DNA of 64,000 nt from Selenomonadaceae bacterium (GTDB lineage: Bacteria > Bacillota > Negativicutes > Selenomonadales > Selenomonadaceae): positions 10,112 to 74,111 of the forward strand of contig JAFRRH010000014.1 of assembly GCA_017428215.1 (NCBI GenBank). Reading direction: 5' to 3'. Of the stretch, positions 13,247-48,796 are shown piece after piece (position 1 is the stretch's first letter; each line of letters starts with the position of its first letter). The translations under genes were made by a program, and so were the position numbers. Below the pieces are notes generated by a model. It did not search any database and was not told the DNA's origin. It saw nothing but the letters and a program-made list of their open reading frames with translations.

Positions 13247-14998
13247 TTATAAAGTTGCACCGAAAATCTCGATAATATCTTGGCTATTGCGGTCGGAAAC
13301 ACTTCTGCCCGTTAGGCTTTCAATTTTATCAAGAATATTTTTAGCTCTGTCGACAACAAAATCGTCGAATTTATCTGCATGGCAGAGGTTAGCGTCGGCG
13401 AAATGTGACTTGAGAAAATCATCAACGTCATTACTTGAACAGCCCGTTTTGTTTTGAATGTTCGTCAGATATTTGCTCGGTGGTTTATCACGAATCATTT
13501 TATTTGTACTGCCTAAAATCGGAGTTTTATTGGCAATGCTGTCGTACTTATTCTCCGGATAACCTTGTTGTATGCAATATTCTTTCGGGAAAATATGATG
13601 AATATCGATGCTCTCGGCGTAAGCGGCACTTGAACTCATGCTGTTGTTGGCAAGAAAATCCTTCGCGCCATTCCGGAAGATTATCGAAATGATTCCCTTA
13701 TAAGCCGCCGAAGTTCTCGTCTTTAAAAACAAAAGACGCAACGCGCTCATTTGCGTTTCGTTAATCATCTTTGGAGCGTTGCCATTAGCAATCCAATCTG
13801 TAATCTCTGAAATATCGCGCCCATAACGAGTTTCTTGCGCCGATCTGTAAGATTCGCCGAAAACGCCGCACCAATACCATTGTCGGATTTTATTTATATC
13901 TACCTTGACGCCACTCAATTTTAATTGCGCGAAAATCGCCGACATGGGGATAAGTTGCGTCGCGTAGGGAAGATATTTTTTTGCTCTGATACATTCACCG
14001 TCGAGAAATTCTGCGCAACTGGTAAACCCTTCGATAAGAGAATCTTTATACTGCAAATAATCGGAGCCGTTCAAATTTAAAATGTCTTCGCGTTTGCAAC
14101 TGGCGGCACGACCTTTCCGATAAGTCGCCAACAAAGTTAAAGCCGTGACAAAATCCGTTGCGCTTACCACGTCTAATACGGCAGAATTCGGGTCGCTTGA
14201 AAATTTTGCTCGAATTTCTTTCCAATCTTCAGGAAGATTTATGCGTTTTCCGGTTGTGTTATCTGGATAAATCGCAAGAATCGCCGTCAACAATTCAAAT
14301 ACTGTTAACTCCGTGCCGCCCGTGTTTACTTTCTCGAAAATCTTGCAGACTATTGCTATCGGCGTAGTCTTTTCAAGCTTAATATAAACAATTTTGTAAG
14401 CAATACAGTTCTTAATGACACGGTCTTCAAATTCTTTCGCGAATATCACCGCTGAAGGATTAGTCGCATTTTTTACAATGTAATCCATAATCCAACCGTC
14501 GCGAATGATTTTATTAAGCGGAGCTATATTTGCGGCAAATTCTTTTTCGGGCGTCGACAAGTCCAAAGTCTTTGTTTTCTTATTCTCTGGAACTGAAATA
14601 ATCATGCTTTCAACATTCGTGGAATTTTTTATCGATTCGACTGCCTTCTTCATGTCTACATAATAATAGCGTTTTGTGCCGTCGGGAAGCTCCACAGGAT
14701 TTTTAGAATAAAGTGCACAGAAAAGCGAAGTCAACCGCTGTTGCCCGTCTAAGACTAAATATCTCGGCGTGCCAGAGGTTGAAACGCCCTTTATCGGCTT
14801 ATAAGAAAATTTTGTCTTATCTGCGTCACACTCAAGGAGCATGATTGAATTTATCGGGAAACCGCGAATAACGCTTTCAATCAGCGATTTAATCTGGTCG
14901 TCATTCCAAACCCAATCGCGCTGAAAATCGGGGATTTGCAATTCGTTGTCTTTTATGCTTTCTAACAATTTTCCGAGAACAAAGCTTTCAGATTCCAA
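13247..14998 (-). CDS. GmrSD-family type IV (modification-dependent) restriction endonuclease, DUF262 + DUF1524
   Basis: N-terminal IPDFQRDWVW and DGQQRLTS (DUF262). C-terminal IDIHHIFPKEY...NKTPILGSTNKMIRDK (His-Me finger, DUF1524). TTG start 8 nt after AGGAGG. Confidence 0.85.
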   Translation of the reverse strand: MESESFVLGKLLESIKDNELQIPDFQRDWVWNDDQIKSLIESVIRGFPINSIMLLECDADKTKFSYKPIKGVSTSGTPRYLVLDGQQRLTSLFCALYSKNPVELPDGTKRYYYVDMKKAVESIKNSTNVESMIISVPENKKTKTLDLSTPEKEFAANIAPLNKIIRDGWIMDYIVKNATNPSAVIFAKEFEDRVIKNCIAYKIVYIKLEKTTPIAIVCKIFEKVNTGGTELTVFELLTAILAIYPDNTTGKRINLPEDWKEIRAKFSSDPNSAVLDVVSATDFVTALTLLATYRKGRAASCKREDILNLNGSDYLQYKDSLIEGFTSCAEFLDGECIRAKKYLPYATQLIPMSAIFAQLKLSGVKVDINKIRQWYWCGVFGESYRSAQETRYGRDISEITDWIANGNAPKMINETQMSALRLLFLKTRTSAAYKGIISIIFRNGAKDFLANNSMSSSAAYAESIDIHHIFPKEYCIQQGYPENKYDSIANKTPILGSTNKMIRDKPPSKYLTNIQNKTGCSSNDVDDFLKSHFADANLCHADKFDDFVVDRAKNILDKIESLTGRSVSDRNSQDIIEIFGATL

Positions 14999-29530: not shown

Positions 29531-31309
29531 TCAGTCATAATCAGCTGCAAAAAACCTATTAAACCTTTCGTTAAGACTCGTAACAAGATCTTCAAGTTGC
29601 TCGATTTGTTTTTGTTGTTCGGACAGCTTTTGAGTTAACGGGGCAATTAATTTTTCTTGGGAGGTGGTTTCGTTAAATTTCTTTACGGCACCTTCAAGTT
29701 CTTCGATTCGTTTTTGCTGTTCGGACAGTTTTTGGGTCAAAGGAGCAATCAATTTTTCTTGAGACGTGGTCTCGTTAAATTTTTTCACGGAACCTTCAAG
29801 TTGCTCAATTCGTTTCTGTTGCCCCGATACCGTTTGACTTAAAGAGTTAATCGACTTTTCTTGGGACATCGTAGCATTACCCAAATCCCGCAAATATTGT
29901 TCCTTTTCCAAAATGTCAACTTCCGCTATTGTATGAATCGAACGAAGTTTTGGGGTAGAGAACAAAATTTCATAAAGATTTTCAAAAAATTTTTCGTCGT
30001 CATGGAGTGCCAAAATTCGGCGATAGTTATCTTCAGAAACGTATTTACTAAAGTCTGTCAACCCGTTTCCATTAGAATAATATTTCAGGCGGTTGTTAAC
30101 ATAGAAATGACATTCATCGAAATCTTTTTTATCAAGTATGGTATTTATTATGCTAAACATCGTCAGGCGGACATTAAAAGGCCAGCGGTGAGAAATTAAC
30201 TCATGCTTCATAAGTTCATAATCAACGGGAATTATTTTCCCGTCTTCTTTGTAGACAAAATTCCAAGGCTGTAAGTCTGTTTGATAGTAGCCATGTTTCT
30301 CAAGGAAAATTAGCCAACGCAATATTTGTTCAACAATATTCCACCTAGCTGATTCTTCATTGATTGTAGAGACTTTTTCAGACAATAAATTCCCCAATGG
30401 AAGCCCTTTTATATTGTCACGAATTATAAATGTCCACTTACCTGTTTCATCATCTTCTTGTATAGTGGCGTGCAGTCTTGGCAAACCGTTTTTCCCGCCG
30501 AGTTCTTGTAAAAATTTGATTTCGTTTTGAACCATTTCAAAAGCTCTTTGACTTGAAGCATTGACGATTTTTATAAATTTGTCGCCAGATTGAAAGTGTT
30601 TTTTATTTCCACCCATTACATGGTCGATTTTTAAGATTCCAAACTCGTCGAAGTGCGCATATTTTTTACTGGCAAAAAGGAGCGGGCGTTGGGAATTCTT
30701 CATGTTGCGCCAGTTGCAGTACTTCAGCACGCGAACAAAGAAATAACCTTTTAAATAATCTCGATAATTGGCTGGTAATTTAAGGTCTGGAAATTCTGCG
30801 GCTCGCGCAAGTTCAAACAATCCGACAGGGATTTTTTCTGCCAAATCAGTTAACAGTTTTTGCACATTTTGAAAACCGCTTTGTTGGGTGGCCCAATGCA
30901 ACATGGAGAAACACAAAACTAAGTCGTACTCGCCCTCTTTAATGGACGGGATAAATTTTTGAATGTTCTCCTGAACAAACTTAATTTTAAAGTCTGGGTG
31001 CTCGCTCGCCAAGAGGTTGCAGATTTCCACAAATTGCTTTGAAGAATCAACACCAACAACTACCCCCCCCCATTTACAGATATGGAAGCCGAAGTAACCA
31101 TAGCAAGCTCTCAAATCCAAGACGCGCAGGGGACGTTGCAATTTTGCGCTCAATTCGTCGTAAATTTTTTTGACTTCAGGCAACCGCTCTTGGCAATCTC
31201 TTTGAGCTTTTTGATCCCACTCGCTGTGCCCGTAAATTGGCTGATAAATTCCTGGCAGTGCATTTACCAGCTCATTGAGTTTTGGATTAATCTCTGACAA
31301 ATTTATCAC
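29531..31309 (-). CDS. WbdD-like bifunctional SAM methyltransferase / kinase-fold protein with C-terminal coiled coil
   Basis: Methyltransferase motif I VLDLRACYGYFG. Kinase-like YYQTDLQPWNFVY...IPVDYE. C-terminal heptad repeats. Confidence 0.65.
   Translation of the reverse strand: MINLSEINPKLNELVNALPGIYQPIYGHSEWDQKAQRDCQERLPEVKKIYDELSAKLQRPLRVLDLRACYGYFGFHICKWGGVVVGVDSSKQFVEICNLLASEHPDFKIKFVQENIQKFIPSIKEGEYDLVLCFSMLHWATQQSGFQNVQKLLTDLAEKIPVGLFELARAAEFPDLKLPANYRDYLKGYFFVRVLKYCNWRNMKNSQRPLLFASKKYAHFDEFGILKIDHVMGGNKKHFQSGDKFIKIVNASSQRAFEMVQNEIKFLQELGGKNGLPRLHATIQEDDETGKWTFIIRDNIKGLPLGNLLSEKVSTINEESARWNIVEQILRWLIFLEKHGYYQTDLQPWNFVYKEDGKIIPVDYELMKHELISHRWPFNVRLTMFSIINTILDKKDFDECHFYVNNRLKYYSNGNGLTDFSKYVSEDNYRRILALHDDEKFFENLYEILFSTPKLRSIHTIAEVDILEKEQYLRDLGNATMSQEKSINSLSQTVSGQQKRIEQLEGSVKKFNETTSQEKLIAPLTQKLSEQQKRIEELEGAVKKFNETTSQEKLIAPLTQKLSEQQKQIEQLEDLVTSLNERFNRFFAADYD
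29590..29870 (-). repeat. 2.8 tandem copies of a 102-bp (34-aa) repeat encoding the coiled-coil tail
   Basis: Units start at 29590, 29692 and 29794 (CTTCAAGTT...). Protein repeat: SQEKLIAPLTQKLSEQQKRIEELEGAVKKFNETT. Confidence 0.9.
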
Positions 31310-41315: not shown

Positions 41316-43849
41316 ATGTTTAAACGAACGATTTTAGCCGCTATTATTCTCGTTGCGACGCTGTGTTTTATGGTTAAATCTGACGCCGCAAAAAACGATA
41401 ATTGGCTCGTCTATTGGTACGTGTGTGGCACCGATATTGAGACCACGCGAATTGCTTTTGGCAACGGCACAAATTTGATGTCGAATGATTCCAAAGCATT
41501 GATTCTTGCCGAACCCGACAGAGAACCAGGAGATGCTACACGTAGCATTAAGGAGGTCGAAAAGGCTACGCTTTCCCCCAACGTGAGAATTTTCATGCAA
41601 GCGGTCGGAACGTACATTTGGGGGCACGAAAAATTCCGCGACCTCAACGCCAAAATTCAAACGAACGTAACAGCTTACAATCGAAATGCTGACGGTACGT
41701 TCAGTCCTGTTCAAGGTACCGTTCTTTCCGGTAGAAAAGTTAGGATTCCGCAATGGTTCCTGAACACTGTTGAAAAGCCCGAAGTCAATGGCAAAATCGG
41801 TCGCTACGTCTATGACAAATATCATCGCAACTGGCACGCCCGCGAACAGTTACCCATAAGCGGCGCACAAGATACCGAAACCGACATGAGTTCTCAAGCG
41901 GGCTTGGTTAGCTTCCTGCAAGCCGGTCAACGCCTTGAACAATCTCTTTATCCCGACGGCAATGTACGCAGAGTTTTTATTTTCGTCGATCACGGTTAAG
42001 GCTGTATCAATCACCCGAACTTGGGCGGCGTTATTTGCAACGATGAGTATACGCAAAATATGCTCAGCTTAAAAGAAGTTCGCGACGCTTTTGCTCAAGT
42101 TAAAGACGGCTGGTCAAATCCCGAAGAAAAACCATTTGAAGTAATAGCCTTTGACGCTTGCCTAATGTCTACTTACGAAACGGCGCAAGCCCTAAAGGAC
42201 ACGGCTAATTATATGGTCGCTTCACAAGAAGAAGGCAACAGCAAAGTCATGTTCGGTTATACCGACTTGCTTAACAAGTTATCGAAAAATCCTGCAATGA
42301 GCGGAGCACAACTTGGTAAAGTCATTTGCGACACTTATTGGGACGACTCCAAAAACACCGATAAAAAATTTAACATGGACTTCAACGCCATTTTAACTTT
42401 GTCGGTTACGGATCTTTCCGAAAATAAAATGGAGACGCTTAAAACAGCTTATGATAATTTCGGCAATGCGGCTCTCTTATATTTTCAACAAAAACCGGAA
42501 GAATTATCCCGTATTTTCGCGGATTTCAATAAGGCGGCGAATAGAACAGAAAGGTATCCTTCCGAAGCCGCATCTAAACATTTCAGCGATTACCAAATTA
42601 CTGAACTGGTAGACTTGAAAGGCTTTGCAAAAAATCCTGCTCAAAATATTCCCAAACTTAAGCAAGCCAGCGATGAACTCGTTTCTGCTGTCAACAATGC
42701 CGTAATTTATCAAAAGCGCGGCGATTCTCTAAAATACGGCGGCGGACTTTCGACTTACTATCCATTCAATTTACTTGAGAATTTAACAAATATCAATTCT
42801 TACGTTGAACTTGCTAATGATAACTTGGCTCCTGTAAATCAAGCAAATTTTTATTCACAATTGTATAATTCGGTAATCGGTAATTTAAAACAAGTTGAGG
42901 TTCCTGTTCTTGATTTTGAAAGTGGAAAAGAAATTAAGAATGACGAAACCGGCGAAGTAATCAAGGAGCCGAAATGGCAAATTCCTGTCGACAGTATTTT
43001 TAACATCAGTGATTTTTCTGAAGTGGAAGTTCAGCTAGACGAGAGAAACAAAACTGCATGGATTAAACTTGACGAAAATCAACTCAACCGAATTGAAAAC
43101 GTTCGTTGCCAACTGATACGTACCGAGACCGCCGAAGGTAGCGACAGATTAATCGGTTCTTATTTGGGTAGCGATAACAGCATGAACGGAAATTGGCAAA
43201 CTGGCAAATTCGAGAATACTCTTCGTGGCAAATGGCTAAAGATTGATGGAAATATCGTTTCAGCTCAACTTCTCTCTGATTCTACAAAAAGAAATAAACG
43301 TGGAAAAAAAGTCGGCGGCTCCGAACTTTACGCCATTCCCATTAATTTGAACGGTGCCAGTTACGCTGTCTTAGCCTCTTGCAGTTATCCTAATGAGAAA
43401 TTCCGTATAATAGGCGCACGTCCTATTGAAGAAGCTCAATCAACATTGGCGGGTACTCTCTTTGCACTTAACAAAGGTGACGCATTGAGCCATATTACAT
43501 GCCGTTTAACGTAAGCGAAGAAGATATAGAAGAAATTGAGGCAAACGCTCGCGAAGAATATGGTAAACAACTTGGCAAATTACCAGTTGAGATACAACGC
43601 AACCTTTTGGCAGGGCATATCGATTTAGTTACGGGCAATCCTTTTACAATCGGGGATTCGCCGAAAATCGAAATGGGAACTTTACCTGACGGCAAATACG
43701 CTTATATTTTCGAGTTTGTCACTCCTGTTGGCGGCGAAGTACGCACATCTCAAACCACAGGTTTCATAATTAAGGACGGAGAAATCGTGTCGGTGAAAAT
43801 TCTTGATGATATTCGAGACATTAATACTTGGGAAGATTTTAGTGAATAA
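41316..43849 (+). pseudogene. secreted C11 (clostripain-family) cysteine peptidase, disrupted by an in-frame TAA (41997..41999) and a -1 frameshift near 43480
   Basis: Signal peptide. FIFVDHG-TAA-G... then FEVIAFDACLMS (His and Cys of the dyad end up on different ORFs). The third ORF (43499..) continues the reading frame if one base is restored (KGDRIEPYYMPFNV). Confidence 0.78.
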
Positions 43850-43924
43850 AGTTTTTAACGCCACCTACATTGCAATAACAAATCAAAAGCGGGCGGCTAA
43901 TTTTTATTCAAAGGAGGAATTTGT

Positions 43925-44204
43925 ATGAAAAAAATTTTGGCGATACTGCTTGTAGTCGTCGCGTTCCACGTTGCCATGCCGAATTCGAGTTCAGCCATAT
44001 TTATATTTTTTATAGACTGCAAAGAATGTGGCGGTTCAGGGCAATGTACAAATTGTGACGGAACAGGCAATTTAGGGGGGATATATGGTTTTAGATAATG
44101 GAAGAGATAGTGAACCACCGCCGGACTGTGATGTATGCTATGGTACGGGCAAGTGCCAAAAATGCGACGGCTCCGGCAAAATTCCCGTCAATACTCTTAA
44201 ATGA
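43925..44204 (+). pseudogene. small secreted DnaJ-type zinc-finger protein (4 x CxxCxGxG), split by a frameshift at a G6 tract (44075..44080)
   Basis: AAGGAGG RBS and signal peptide. CKECGGSG, CTNCDGTG | CDVCYGTG, CQKCDGSG. Removing one G fuses both halves into a 92-aa ORF. Confidence 0.6.
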
Positions 44205-44285
44205 AAAATTTTCGTCTCCTGCGCCTGCGACACTATGTCGAGAGCGGGCGGTACAATCTTACTTTTAAATAAGGAGGAAATACTC

Positions 44286-44669
44286 ATGAAAAAATTATTT
44301 ACTCTCGCGGCATTTCTCTTCATCATAGCAATTTCGTCTTCGGCTCTGGCGGCAAATTGGGTGCGTGTTGCAAGGAATGATGATTACGGCGGTAAAACAT
44401 ACGTAGATTATTATGTGGATAAAGATTCGATTAGACGCGCCACAAATTCCAAGTTTTCTCAGCCGAATGCTGTCCTTGCAGTTGTTAAACAAATATCGAA
44501 CAAAGGACATGTCAAAGAAAATATCATGGGTTTCTGGAGAGAGGACGGTAAAAAATATTTCGCTTATCCGACCAGCTATCTGGACGGTAGCGACGGCGTA
44601 TATAATAACATGGAAGTCAATAGATCGTGGAGTATAGTTTGGGACTACGTCTATAATAATCTTCCTTGA
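44286..44669 (+). CDS. small secreted protein (127 aa), paralog of 45193..45621
   Basis: AAGGAGG RBS. Signal peptide ending ALA-ANWV. Shared motifs YVDKDSIR, FWREDGKK, WDYVYNNL. Confidence 0.7.
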   Translation: MKKLFTLAAFLFIIAISSSALAANWVRVARNDDYGGKTYVDYYVDKDSIRRATNSKFSQPNAVLAVVKQISNKGHVKENIMGFWREDGKKYFAYPTSYLDGSDGVYNNMEVNRSWSIVWDYVYNNLP

Positions 44670-44765
44670 TTCAAATAAATTTCGTCACTTACAATTTGCG
44701 CCGCCTGCTCTCACAAACTCGGCGGGGGTGGGCGACGTAGCTTCATTAACAAGGGAGGAATTCCC

Positions 44766-45173
44766 ATGAAAAAATTTTATTTAACGTTGGTTGTATGCTT
44801 TGTGCTTGTGAGTTCGCAAGTTGTTTCTGCGGCAGACTTTCCTGATATTCGCAATATTGCCCCTGACAAAATTATACTTGAATGGAAATATCCCAGCAAA
44901 AATGACGACGACGGTTGTTACGAATATTCCTGCGCAGACGGAAACGGTTTACTGTATGCAGAACAGTACATTAAATTATTGACAAAGAACGGTTTCAAAT
45001 TGGTAGGTAAAGATGTTGATTCCTCCAGAACGATATGGGGATTCGTTATATCCAACAAAAATCTTCCTGCGGTTGACTTTTACGCGGTACCGCCTTGTCA
45101 TATTTTGATTGAGGCTTTTAAGGACGGAGAAATTCAAATACGTTTAGCACCACGAATTACATATGGCGATTAA
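44766..45173 (+). CDS. small secreted protein (135 aa), unknown family
   Basis: GGGAGG RBS and signal peptide (VVSA-AD). Confidence 0.65.
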   Translation: MKKFYLTLVVCFVLVSSQVVSAADFPDIRNIAPDKIILEWKYPSKNDDDGCYEYSCADGNGLLYAEQYIKLLTKNGFKLVGKDVDSSRTIWGFVISNKNLPAVDFYAVPPCHILIEAFKDGEIQIRLAPRITYGD

Positions 45174-45192
45174 GTTAAGGAGGGTATTAAAA

Positions 45193-45621
45193 ATGAAAAA
45201 AATATCTATACTCGCGGCAGTTCTCCTCATCGTGGCGATTTCGTCGACGGCTCTGGCGGCAAATTGGGTGTATATTGCAACGAGAGAAGAAGCGGGATTC
45301 GATGTTTATGTTGACAAAGATTCAATCCGTCATGGAATTCACTCCGCTAAATGCAACATAACACGTAACGACGGTTTCAGTGCACACATCGATCTTAAAG
45401 ACAATCAAGGAAGTTTAATATTTTTGGTATGGTTTTGGAGAGAAAACGGGAAAAAACATTGTAAATTTTTAGAAGTGTACGATGAGAATGGAAATTCTTC
45501 GCCATACGAAAGTGGTTTTCCCGATAGAGGCACTGAGATCGCTGAAAACGATACAGAGACTCTGATGGTCTTTGATTACGTGGAAAATAATCTCCGTGAG
45601 TGCAAGCCGCGTTCCGAGTAA
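45193..45621 (+). CDS. small secreted protein (142 aa), paralog of 44286..44669
   Basis: AAGGAGG RBS. Signal peptide ALA-ANWV. YVDKDSIR, FWRENGKK, FDYVENNL. Confidence 0.7.
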   Translation: MKKISILAAVLLIVAISSTALAANWVYIATREEAGFDVYVDKDSIRHGIHSAKCNITRNDGFSAHIDLKDNQGSLIFLVWFWRENGKKHCKFLEVYDENGNSSPYESGFPDRGTEIAENDTETLMVFDYVENNLRECKPRSE

Positions 45622-45705
45622 AAAATTTTCGTATCCTGCGCCTGCGGTATTGTTCGAGAGCGAGTAGCGTAAATTCTAATTTTCAAGATAAAGGAGGTGA
45701 TTCAC

Positions 45706-45949
45706 ATGAAAAAAAATTATCGCCGTTTTAGCTGCGGTCGCCGTGTTCTCTGTTGTTTTTCCGACTTTTGCCAAATCATTATGTACGACATGTCGCGGTT
45801 CAGGCAAAATTATGTATAATCAAACCGTTCCCGCTTACAATTACAGATACGACCGAAAGGCTGGCAGAAACATACGTGTTCCACCGTACAACAAGTTAAA
45901 AACGATGGTTCGAGTTTGTTCATCGTGTAGAGGAAAAGGACATAGTTAA
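45706..45949 (+). pseudogene. small secreted protein with 2 x CxxCxGxG, out of frame at an A8 tract (45709..45716)
   Basis: AAGGAGGTG RBS and ATG. With A7 the frame reads MKKIIAVLAAVAVFSVVFPTFAKSLCTTCRGSGK...CSSCRGKGHS (80 aa). With A8 it stops after 37 codons. Confidence 0.55.
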
Positions 45950-45978: not shown

Positions 45979-46007
45979 ATCCCGTCACTCGGATTGAGTG
46001 GCGGGAT
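45979..46007. terminator. bidirectional terminator between the small-protein cluster and efp
   Basis: 12-bp stem ATCCCGTCACTC / GAGTGGCGGGAT, 5-nt loop, A-run upstream and T-run downstream. Confidence 0.8.
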
Positions 46008-46027: not shown

Positions 46028-46585
46028 TTATGCGCGTTCGATGTAAGAGCCGGTTCGCGTGTCAATTCTAAGAACGTCGCCTTCGTTGATGAAGAGTGGC
46101 ACACGAACGACGTAACCAGTTTCAAGCGTGGCATTTTTAGTTGCGCCAGTGGCAGTGTTGCCTTTAACGGCGGGTTCACATTCAGTAACTTTAAGTTCGA
46201 CGCTGTTGGGCAGGTTGACGCCGATAATGCGCCCCTTAAACGTCTGCAAGTTGACTTCCATATTTTCCATTAAGAAATTGAGCGCGTTGCCGAGTTGTTC
46301 CTTGTTAAGTTCAATTTGCTCGTAAGTCTCAACGTCCATGAAAGTATATTGCCCGTCGGATTCGTAAAGGAACTGCATTTTGCTAGTATCAAGGCGGGCG
46401 GGCGGCATTTTCTCGTTGGGGTTGAAAGTGCGCTCAACAACTGCGCCAGTCTCCACATTTTTAATTTTCGTGCGAACAAACGCCGCGCCTTTGCCGGGCT
46501 TGACGTGCTGGAATTCAACGACCTGCCACGCCATACCGTCAATCTCAATCGTTAAACCTGTCCGGAAATCTGTACTTGAAATCAT
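46028..46585 (-). CDS. efp: elongation factor P
   Basis: 185 aa. [16 protein letters not shown] signature. Confidence 0.97.
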
Positions 46586-48174: not shown

Positions 48175-48429
48175 TTAATATTTAATGGCAAATTTATTTT
48201 CTCTTTTCTCGACGGGCAAATCAAAAACTTCAAATTTAGTGATTTTAATACGTTCATTGCCCTTTTTTATTTGTTCAATAAGCTGTTCGATAATCGGAGA
48301 TGTACCCTGCAATTCCATTATTAAAGAACCATCATGCATTTTTCTGACCCAACCCGTAGCGTCTAAAAAGTTTGCGCAAGCCTGCACGAAATATCTAAAA
48401 CTGACGCCTTGAATTCGACCTTTAGCCAT
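48175..48429 (-). CDS. acyP: acylphosphatase
   Basis: GRIQGVSFRYF...GWVRKMHDGS. ATG at 48429 after GGGAG. Confidence 0.85.
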   Translation of the reverse strand: MAKGRIQGVSFRYFVQACANFLDATGWVRKMHDGSLIMELQGTSPIIEQLIEQIKKGNERIKITKFEVFDLPVEKRENKFAIKY

Positions 48430-48448
48430 TACTCCCTTGCGGACTTTT

Positions 48449-48796
48449 TTAATATCGGATTGCAAATTTATTCTCTCCTCCGACAACTGGCAAATCAGAA
48501 ATTTCAAAGTTAGTTACTTTAATCCAATCGTTGCCGCGTTTTATTTTAGCGATTAAGCGTTCGACAATTTCAGGCTCGCCTTGCAGTTCCATTGTTACAG
48601 AGCCGTCGCTCATGTTTTTTACCCAGCCTGTTATGCCCATAGCTTTTGCGTTGCTTTGAACAAAAAATCGAAAGCCGACGCCTTGAACGCGACCTTCAGC
48701 ACGTCCCGCCTTACGAACGGCATTTTCAAGATTAACGGGGGCAACGGGTTCGGCGTCCTCGTTACTGCCGCCAAAAATATTACTCCAGAAACTCAT
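48449..48796 (-). CDS. acyP: acylphosphatase paralog with ~30-aa N-terminal extension
   Basis: GRVQGVGFRFF...GWVKNMSDGS. Confidence 0.85.
   Translation of the reverse strand: MSFWSNIFGGSNEDAEPVAPVNLENAVRKAGRAEGRVQGVGFRFFVQSNAKAMGITGWVKNMSDGSVTMELQGEPEIVERLIAKIKRGNDWIKVTNFEISDLPVVGGENKFAIRY

Follow-up and report, generated by a model that had tools for sequence, protein, structure and literature searches.

Secreted cysteine peptidases with small co-encoded partner proteins are known from other bacteria, such as staphopain with staphostatin and, in Bacteroides fragilis, Bfp with Bfi. DnaJ-like zinc-finger proteins of plants, with two or four repeats, are active outside the classical chaperone context, where they isomerise disulfides or assist assembly (PMC4754418). 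Protein E of Haemophilus influenzae is described with six strands and a helix on the concave face (PMC7857515). The five small genes compared here with these systems lie at positions 43925-45949 of a 64,000-nucleotide stretch from a Selenomonadaceae bacterium (GCA_017428215.1, contig JAFRRH010000014.1, positions 10,112 to 74,111 of the forward strand), which is called the window below. They follow one another on the + strand behind the gene of a secreted C11 (clostripain-like) peptidase. The locus, of which the anatomy, family relations, co-occurrence, inactivations and recent exchange are documented here, is probably the tail of a strain-variable, laterally exchanged and cassette-built accessory operon behind the peptidase gene, and this operon is probably decaying in this strain.

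The C11 gene (41316..43849, + strand; PF03415, 77 bits) is present as three open reading frame (ORF) pieces (41316-41999, 42021-43514 and 43499-43849). It is followed, all on the + strand, by gene 1 (43925..44204), a frameshifted gene for an exported zinc-ribbon mini-protein with four CxxCxGxG repeats; gene 2 (44286..44669), which is intact and encodes a 127-amino-acid (aa) protein of the ANWV...YVDKDSIR type (ANWV below), a remote member of the Adhesin_E superfamily with a signal of the signal peptidase I type; gene 3 (44766..45173), which is intact and encodes an orphan exported protein of 135 aa; gene 4 (45193..45621), an ANWV paralog of 142 aa with an altered C-terminus; and gene 5 (45706..45949), a frameshifted paralog of gene 1 with two CxxCxGxG repeats. 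Every one of the five has an AAGGAGG-like site 6-9 nucleotides (nt) before ATG AAA AAA, and every product starts with MKK, a hydrophobic core of 10-12 residues (mean Kyte-Doolittle 3.2-3.7) and a small-x-small (AxA-type) site. For genes 1 to 5, cleavage is predicted between SSA and IF, ALA and ANW, VSA and AD, ALA and ANW, and TFA and KS, respectively, and a rule-based check found no lipobox cysteine in any of the five products.

The set ends at a bidirectional intrinsic terminator (45979..46007; 13-bp stem, A-run before and T-run after) that is common to the convergent gene efp (46028-46585, - strand), and no internal terminators were predicted within the five-gene set. Genes for Omp85/POTRA (BamA) and TamB are present in the window, which means that the cell is diderm, with outer membrane and periplasm, and in such a cell the Sec signal peptides would direct the products to the periplasm or the envelope. 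An initial annotation, made from the letters of this DNA alone, had described five small signal-peptide genes, each with its own ribosome-binding site (RBS), as one accessory unit flanked by a bidirectional terminator. The five genes, the sites, the signal peptides (by simple rules) and the terminator were all recovered, with the correction that genes 1 and 5 are frameshifted and had been read through.

The same families were found at the same locus in several related lineages, which bears out the reading as one accessory unit. All genome matches were metagenome-assembled genomes (MAGs) of rumen Selenomonadaceae/Quinella, and the sequencing runs with the locus were ruminant gut metagenomes. 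The chromosomal place beside efp was the same, the content differed, and at least eight arrangements with the same families were observed; the array is fluid, and inactivated genes are common in many of the lineages. The C11 gene lay directly upstream of small genes in the window and in L015, L024, L027, L028, L030, L032 and L033; the families thus do co-occur in other genomes, contrary to the outcome that the initial annotation had named as refuting its reading. In L015, an intact C11 gene (695 aa) is followed by an ANWV gene and a four-repeat zinc-finger gene that is frameshifted (A6, A7 being needed). L032 and L033 have the end of the C11 gene, an ANWV gene, a four-repeat zinc-finger gene and efp, and L028 has the C11 end, orthologs of genes 2 and 3 and another ANWV gene. 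In L024/L025, the C11 end is followed by intact gene 1 (92 aa) and intact gene 5 (81 aa), with no ANWV gene, and in L027 a truncated C11 gene is followed by a 69-aa remnant of gene 1 and a four-repeat gene with spoiled knuckles.

The C11 gene is wholly absent from L016/L017, which have intact gene 1, an ANWV gene, orthologs of genes 4 and 5 (the latter with CTTW for CTTC) and efp; in L017, window position 41325 is joined to 43903, the C11 gene being deleted. In L013, a toxin-antitoxin pair and an inverted ANWV gene replace the C11 gene and are followed by a gene 2 ortholog, intact gene 5 and efp. The replacing segment (L013 286-1317) encodes a BrnT-type toxin and a small putative antitoxin, besides the inverted ANWV paralog. 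L030 contains an ANWV gene with TGA at the invariant Trp codon and then a frameshifted second copy (286-687 and 687-1450, also in L031); the first reads AAN-stop-VYV, a further case of decay at this locus. A strict rule by which a dead peptidase entails a dead zinc-finger gene was considered and rejected, since L015 combines an intact C11 gene with a broken zinc-finger gene and L013 combines the lack of C11 with an intact one.

In front of each cassette stands a conserved module that combines an intergenic element (AAAAATTTTCGTCTCCTGCGCCTGCG ... TCGAGAGCGGGCGG) with the RBS and the codons of the signal peptide. In the window, the element stands at 44204..44262 (+ strand; a GC-rich weak hairpin with no U-tract), with a second copy at 45621-45680 and degenerate copies at 43849-43905 and 44683-44745, and contigs of related strains in X5, X8, X10 and X11 have it ahead of gene 1 as well. 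The module before the gene 4 ortholog of L016 is 94.8% identical to the module before gene 2 of the window. In a contig of X10, position 44285 is joined directly to 45193, which brings the start of gene 2 up to that of gene 4 and removes genes 2 and 3. Among 24 family members, conservation was higher in the signal peptide than in the mature part for 91% of pairs (57% vs 36%), the reverse of the usual pattern, which would fit homogenisation by recombination. The intergenic element was also considered as an RNA element and rejected because of its weak fold (consensus -7 kcal/mol) and almost no covariation; a search of the region against Rfam gave no meaningful match.

Comparison of the window with L016 gave synonymous divergence (dS) of 0.07-0.15 for genes 1, 4 and 5 and of 0.76 for efp (Fisher p = 5e-14), and DNA identity of 94-95% in the islet, 88.7% in efp and 82% in pepP. 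The islet is far closer than its flanks, indicating recent exchange between lineages. The ratio of nonsynonymous to synonymous divergence (dN/dS) was 0.13-0.5 in most pairs, therefore the small genes are, or were, real coding genes; the gene 5 pair of the window and L016, in which both copies are defective, gave 0.79. In the operon proposed here, a secreted clostripain-type (C11) peptidase gene would be followed by changeable cassettes for small exported proteins, up to the terminator shared with efp. The cassettes would come from three families, namely ANWV (genes 2 and 4), zinc-ribbon (genes 1 and 5) and orphan alpha/beta (gene 3), and would be shuffled, deleted and exchanged between lineages, with one recombination junction placed within the shared module.

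Decay of the locus is evident from five disabling or altering mutations within 4.7 kb, the flanking housekeeping genes being intact. The C11 gene has an in-frame TAA (41997-41999) directly after the VDHG motif with the catalytic His and a frameshift near 43500, in agreement with the initial annotation, in which the upstream peptidase was already called dead. In gene 1 as written, a TAA at 44096-44098 ends the frame after 57 codons, while the +1 frame, open up to a TGA at 44202-44204, encodes repeats 3 and 4; the two frames join, giving 92 aa, only if the G6 run at 44075-44080 is read as G5. In gene 5, the ATG (45706) is followed by A8 (45709-45716) and the sequence is out of frame from codon 4, so that translation from the ATG would end after 37 codons; the +1 frame encodes the signal peptide and the two repeats, and A7 would be needed for the product of 80 aa. 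The zinc-finger genes had initially been taken as intact, a reading that had silently removed one extra G from gene 1 and one extra A from gene 5. As judged from these frames, genes 1 and 5 of this DNA are pseudogenes, and their zinc-finger products are predicted not to be made in this strain.

Gene 4 ends in ...NNLRECKPRSE, compared with ...NNLP and a stop in all orthologs, owing to a 1-nt deletion at the last codon (CTTCCG to CTCCG; in the DNA alignment the relatives read CTTCCGTGA and the window reads CTCCGTGAG). Of the five small genes, three are therefore intact, counting gene 4 with its altered C-terminus, and two are frameshifted. Decay in this strain would consist of the nonsense mutation and frameshift in the C11 gene, a +1 homopolymer insertion in each of genes 1 and 5, and the loss of the normal stop of gene 4, and only genes 2 and 3 and the altered gene 4 would still yield a product. 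In contig L004, all seven differences from the window are clustered within 48 nt (window 45283-45330), at the start of the mature part of gene 4 and near the contig end; this cluster may be a strain variant, or a recombination or assembly junction with another paralog.

The form of the locus seen in the window is widespread. The exact protein of gene 3 was found on at least 24 independent metagenome contigs. Six of these contigs, from different samples and assemblers, were fetched; five match the window at 100% identity over 4.8 kb, and the sixth, which is shorter, is 99.8% identical over 4.2 kb.

In a six-frame translation of the window, 6 of the 7 CxxCxGxG matches fall in genes 1 and 5, so the repeats are not a chance feature. 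Four repeats are present in gene 1 when it is read through and two in gene 5, and the two genes are paralogous, linked via the four-repeat forms of L015, L027, L032 and L033. In the alignment of the zinc-finger proteins, all members have a central invariant G-R-x4-P-P at the hairpin centre, and the two-repeat forms retain repeats 1 and 4 of the four-repeat forms. In DnaJ, repeats 1 and 4 are the pair that forms zinc centre I, and their retention here argues, indirectly, for a predicted interleaved DnaJ-type topology (1+4, 2+3). The family is small: a search of 5.8 billion protein clusters with the read-through of gene 1 returned 3 proteins. Intact 92-aa orthologs of gene 1 were seen in P0014, L016 and L024, and intact 80/81-aa orthologs of gene 5 in L013, L016 and L024. 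The gene 5 ortholog of L016 (1441-1683) reads CTTWRGSG for CTTCRGSG, a zinc-ligand Cys being lost in a strain that has also lost the entire C11 gene. No model of Pfam, NCBIfam, PHROGs or PADLOC was matched above its cut-off by any of the five proteins. The NCBIfam DnaJ models matched the zinc-finger proteins at E > 0.08 only, and DUF7895 (PF25433; cut-off 27 bits) gave 26.9 bits over 19 residues, the tandem knuckle, of a 75-position model. The description of the outer genes as exported DnaJ-type CxxCxGxG proteins therefore holds for the repeats and the exported type; the Pfam score stays below the cut-off, and the proteins are predicted not to be made in this strain.

Genes 2 and 4 are paralogs, as had been proposed, their signal peptides being 68% and their mature parts 34% identical. 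The cluster search with gene 2 returned 13 proteins, and a profile search with the ANWV family of 1.84 billion representatives returned 57 proteins at 50% clustering. Of 41 scanned proteins found with the ANWV profile, nine matched Adhesin_E (PF16747), a set that had itself been chosen by the ANWV profile, and three of them were above the cut-off of 23.7 bits (P0066, 34.6; P0048, 30.5; P0068, 28.9 bits). In the Adhesin_E-positive proteins, the domain begins at the same mature N-W, and hhalign of mature-only alignments of ANWV and Adhesin_E gave a probability of 98.3% (E 1.7e-14, 103 columns). In Pfam, genes 2 and 4 had no match to Adhesin_E at E <= 1, and no tested core member of the family matched it. 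ANWV proteins have about 105 residues, with a predicted beta-sheet and C-terminal helix. In the AlphaFold2 (AF2) model of gene 2 (predicted local distance difference test, pLDDT, 77.8), strands occupy residues 25-33, 38-45, 63-71, 76-86 and 89-93 and a helix residues 114-124, plus a bridge. Gene 2 has no cysteine, and those present in gene 4 are not shared across the family.

The ANWV family is filed as a putative remote, non-lipidated branch of the Adhesin_E superfamily, not as orthologs of protein E. The tentative link to the protein E family drawn in the initial annotation thus survives at the profile level, with no direct Adhesin_E match, lipobox, disulfide or fold match. Overall, the earlier observation was partly confirmed and its interpretation partly supported. 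Beside lone ANWV genes in Quinella and Selenomonadales MAGs, ORFs with a double-glycine-type leader (...DEEL..VAGG) occur at a distance of a few kb (L009 1351-1809; L012 6228-6728 and 7267-7824), and the two ANWV copies of L012 share a repeated upstream sequence.

Gene 3 was found in the 5.8 billion clusters only as itself and one relative with 82% identity, and its mature part is conserved. Its AF2 model, built from a two-sequence alignment, is of low confidence (pLDDT 60.7) and alpha/beta. The best Foldseek matches of this low-confidence model were Flpp3 (PDB 6PNY) and BamC-type helix-grip domains (E 3.5e-3 to 5e-3, above the 0.001 level; template modelling score, TM, 0.34-0.41), and a weak RnlA-type match was also obtained.

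A working relation between the small proteins and the peptidase can be proposed with some reserve: the intact small proteins may be binding, holding or modulating partners of the peptidase that are lost with it once the peptidase is no longer maintained, a proposal that is tentative and less likely to be right than wrong. A more specific version, which we regard as very doubtful, is that the zinc-ribbon proteins represent a new class of exported regulators, in which the knuckles would clamp a hairpin and the G-R-x4-P-P loop would act as substrate-like bait for the Arg-directed C11 peptidase in the periplasm of a diderm Firmicute, with the Adhesin_E-like proteins as a second partner and the whole module traded as cassettes and lost with the peptidase. 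The invariant Arg loop beside a clostripain-type enzyme suggests, as speculation, such a substrate-like contact.

Several observations weigh against the operon reading and its functional extension. Adjacency is the only link between the small genes and the peptidase. L013 and L016 keep small genes with no peptidase, and in L015 the peptidase is intact and the zinc-finger gene is frameshifted. In more distant Selenomonadaceae (L007-L012, L018-L023), a lone ANWV gene stands in unrelated contexts, beside lipopolysaccharide (LPS) core or other genes, with no C11 or zinc-finger gene nearby. The relatives are mostly short metagenome contigs from few close lineages, so the co-occurrence counts are not phylogenetically independent, and none of the RNA sequencing (RNA-seq) runs searched contained the locus. 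The signal peptides were called by crude, simple rules, not by SignalP. Against Pfam DnaJ_CXXCXGXG (PF00684; cut-off 32.7), gene 1 scored 15.3 and gene 5 24.4 bits. The Foldseek search of PDB with the gene 2 model gave nothing significant, every match lying at E 0.3 or higher and protein E being absent from the top 50, and sequence searches of PDB with the ANWV profile, P0048 and the Adhesin_E-positive group did not reach protein E.

Part of this evidence would suit an explanation in which the small genes are unrelated to the peptidase. The gap between C11 and efp would then be a recombination-prone parking place for envelope or adhesion genes that act singly, among them Adhesin_E-like binding proteins, for example for attachment to feed particles, the host or other microbes. 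The ANWV family, with its 57 representatives, is wider than this locus, and the lone ANWV genes, the lineages without peptidase and the toxin-antitoxin pair in the same gap of L013 are what would be expected of such a place. Against it, the zinc-finger family was found at this locus only, the order C11, ANWV, zinc-finger gene and terminator recurs in L015, L032, L033 and the window despite 30-60% protein divergence, and no internal terminators are predicted. This explanation is considered unlikely, though worth keeping in mind.

The frameshifts in genes 1 and 5 invite a different explanation, a contingency locus in which the poly-A of gene 5 and the poly-G of gene 1 switch the exported proteins by slipped-strand mispairing, both being OFF in the window; transcriptional slippage on A8 could then give a trickle of in-frame product. 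The tract after the gene 5 ATG does vary, being A7 and in frame in L013, L016, L024 and four related strains (X5, X8, X10 and X11), A6 and out of frame in L015, and A8 and out of frame in the window, which amounts to two independent slippages in opposite directions, and G6 runs are rare, with 2 in the window. However, the tracts are short for high-rate switching, A7 is explained by the M-K-K-I codons, and the gene 1 run is not maintained in relatives. Related strains read GGC GGA ACT ATG at this site, in frame, and since the run is absent from them, G6 is a lineage-specific insertion. Within the strain itself, G6 was present in 6 of 6 fetched contigs and A8 in the 5 of 5 that reach gene 5, and Logan contigs of four runs (depths 16-172), a kind of assembly that drops rare variants, contained only G6 and A8, with no variant. 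Moreover, the C11 gene (nonsense and frameshift) and gene 4 were hit by non-reversible or non-tract mutations, which fits general decay. A switching locus is thus held to be improbable, although it counts as a live rival for gene 5, given the A6, A7 and A8 forms of its one tract in different lineages.

The candidate of a conserved slippery G tract in gene 1 was rejected on the same comparison, as related strains have GGCGGA there. Elsewhere in the window, a C9 run (31063-31071; G9 on the coding strand) lies in frame inside a methyltransferase-like ORF (29531-31309, - strand) and encodes ...CKWGGVVVG...; no other long G/C homopolymer occurs in the window, and as a candidate for phase variation this run is stronger than the tracts of genes 1 and 5.

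Genes 1 and 5 could also be read as Sec-dependent, cysteine-rich antimicrobial peptides with genes 2-4 as periplasmic immunity proteins. In favour of this are the small size and high cysteine content of the products, each with a signal peptide of its own, the strongly basic mature part of gene 5, and a gene content that varies between strains as in polymorphic toxin/immunity arrays. Against this stand the lack of any match to bacteriocin, immunity or defence families in the library scans, the lack of a transporter or an immunity-type membrane protein, the zinc-finger genes without ANWV in L024 and the ANWV genes that occur alone elsewhere, and this explanation is considered highly improbable. 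That the frameshifts are sequencing or assembly errors and that all five genes are intact can be practically dismissed: both frameshifts lie in homopolymers, the classic site of such errors, but six contigs from different assemblers and samples agree in their tract lengths, the locus is present on at least 24 contigs, the assemblies are of the Illumina k-mer type with depth up to 172, and a second strain (P0015) has the same 57-aa truncation of gene 1 together with one substitution.

The cassette-built, decaying operon is accordingly retained as the probable reading, and several consequences would follow from it. In a rumen strain that is widespread, the locus offers a clean natural example of cassette shuffling via a conserved signal-peptide module and of an accessory operon that decays step by step. 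In annotation, genes 1 and 5 of this DNA should be marked as pseudogenes and not as proteins. Should the intact versions act together with the peptidase, they would provide the first case of a DnaJ-type zinc knuckle used by bacteria in exported form. C11 peptidases, which are common in gut bacteria, would then gain a partner of a new type, and the non-lipidated branch of Adhesin_E would gain a function outside pathogens.

Two further features of the window were recorded outside the locus. At 48175-48796 (- strand), there are two tandem overlapping acylphosphatase genes of 110 and 115 aa, and at 13247-14998 (- strand) there is a gene for a GmrSD-type (DUF262) restriction endonuclease.

Compared with described systems, each of the families shows both likeness and difference. 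The gene 3 product has a weak fold match to small envelope proteins, namely Flpp3, a Francisella surface lipoprotein, and BamC-type domains, but it has neither a lipobox nor sequence similarity to them. The ANWV proteins share with protein E and Adhesin_E a domain that starts at the first mature residues, a conserved Trp and a strand-turn of the form Y-(V/I)-D-x-D/N-S-I, and the antiparallel beta-sheet with C-terminal helix in the gene 2 model follows the general plan described for protein E. In contrast to protein E, a lipoprotein with a lipobox, they have a signal peptide of the signal peptidase I type cleaved between ALA and ANW; they have no counterpart of its 99-148 disulfide, which tethers helix to sheet, and their host is a rumen anaerobe, to which the vitronectin and laminin ligands are not applicable.

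Genes 1 and 5 carry the CxxCxGxG repeats of the DnaJ Cys-rich domain (PF00684). However, their repeats are tightly paired (9 residues start-to-start vs 14-22 in DnaJ), the hairpin centre has the invariant G-R-x4-P-P, the family is tiny, and the proteins are stand-alone, with 80-95 aa, no J domain and a Sec signal that would direct them to the periplasm of a diderm, whereas DnaJ is a cytosolic co-chaperone. Stand-alone DnaJ-like zinc-finger proteins for comparison are LQY1, CYO1/SCO2 and BSD2 of plants and anti-TRAP of Bacillus.

For the locus as a whole, the comparison is with the cysteine-peptidase operons that have a small partner, staphopain-staphostatin and Bfp-Bfi of Bacteroides fragilis. 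The peptidase here is of family C11, in contrast to C47 (staphopain) and C10 (Bfp), and the small proteins show no sequence or fold match to staphostatin or lipocalin-type inhibitors; partners of the staphostatin/Bfi type have an eight-stranded beta-barrel, and the Foldseek matches of lipocalin/beta-barrel type were weak (E 0.3-1.6). What is shared is the arrangement: directly behind the gene of a secreted cysteine peptidase, and as part of its transcription unit, lie genes for small beta-rich proteins. In its peptidase-linked array of cassettes, the locus brings together an orphan, a divergent branch of Adhesin_E and exported zinc-ribbon mini-proteins of the DnaJ type, and both this association and the cassette dynamics are unusual.

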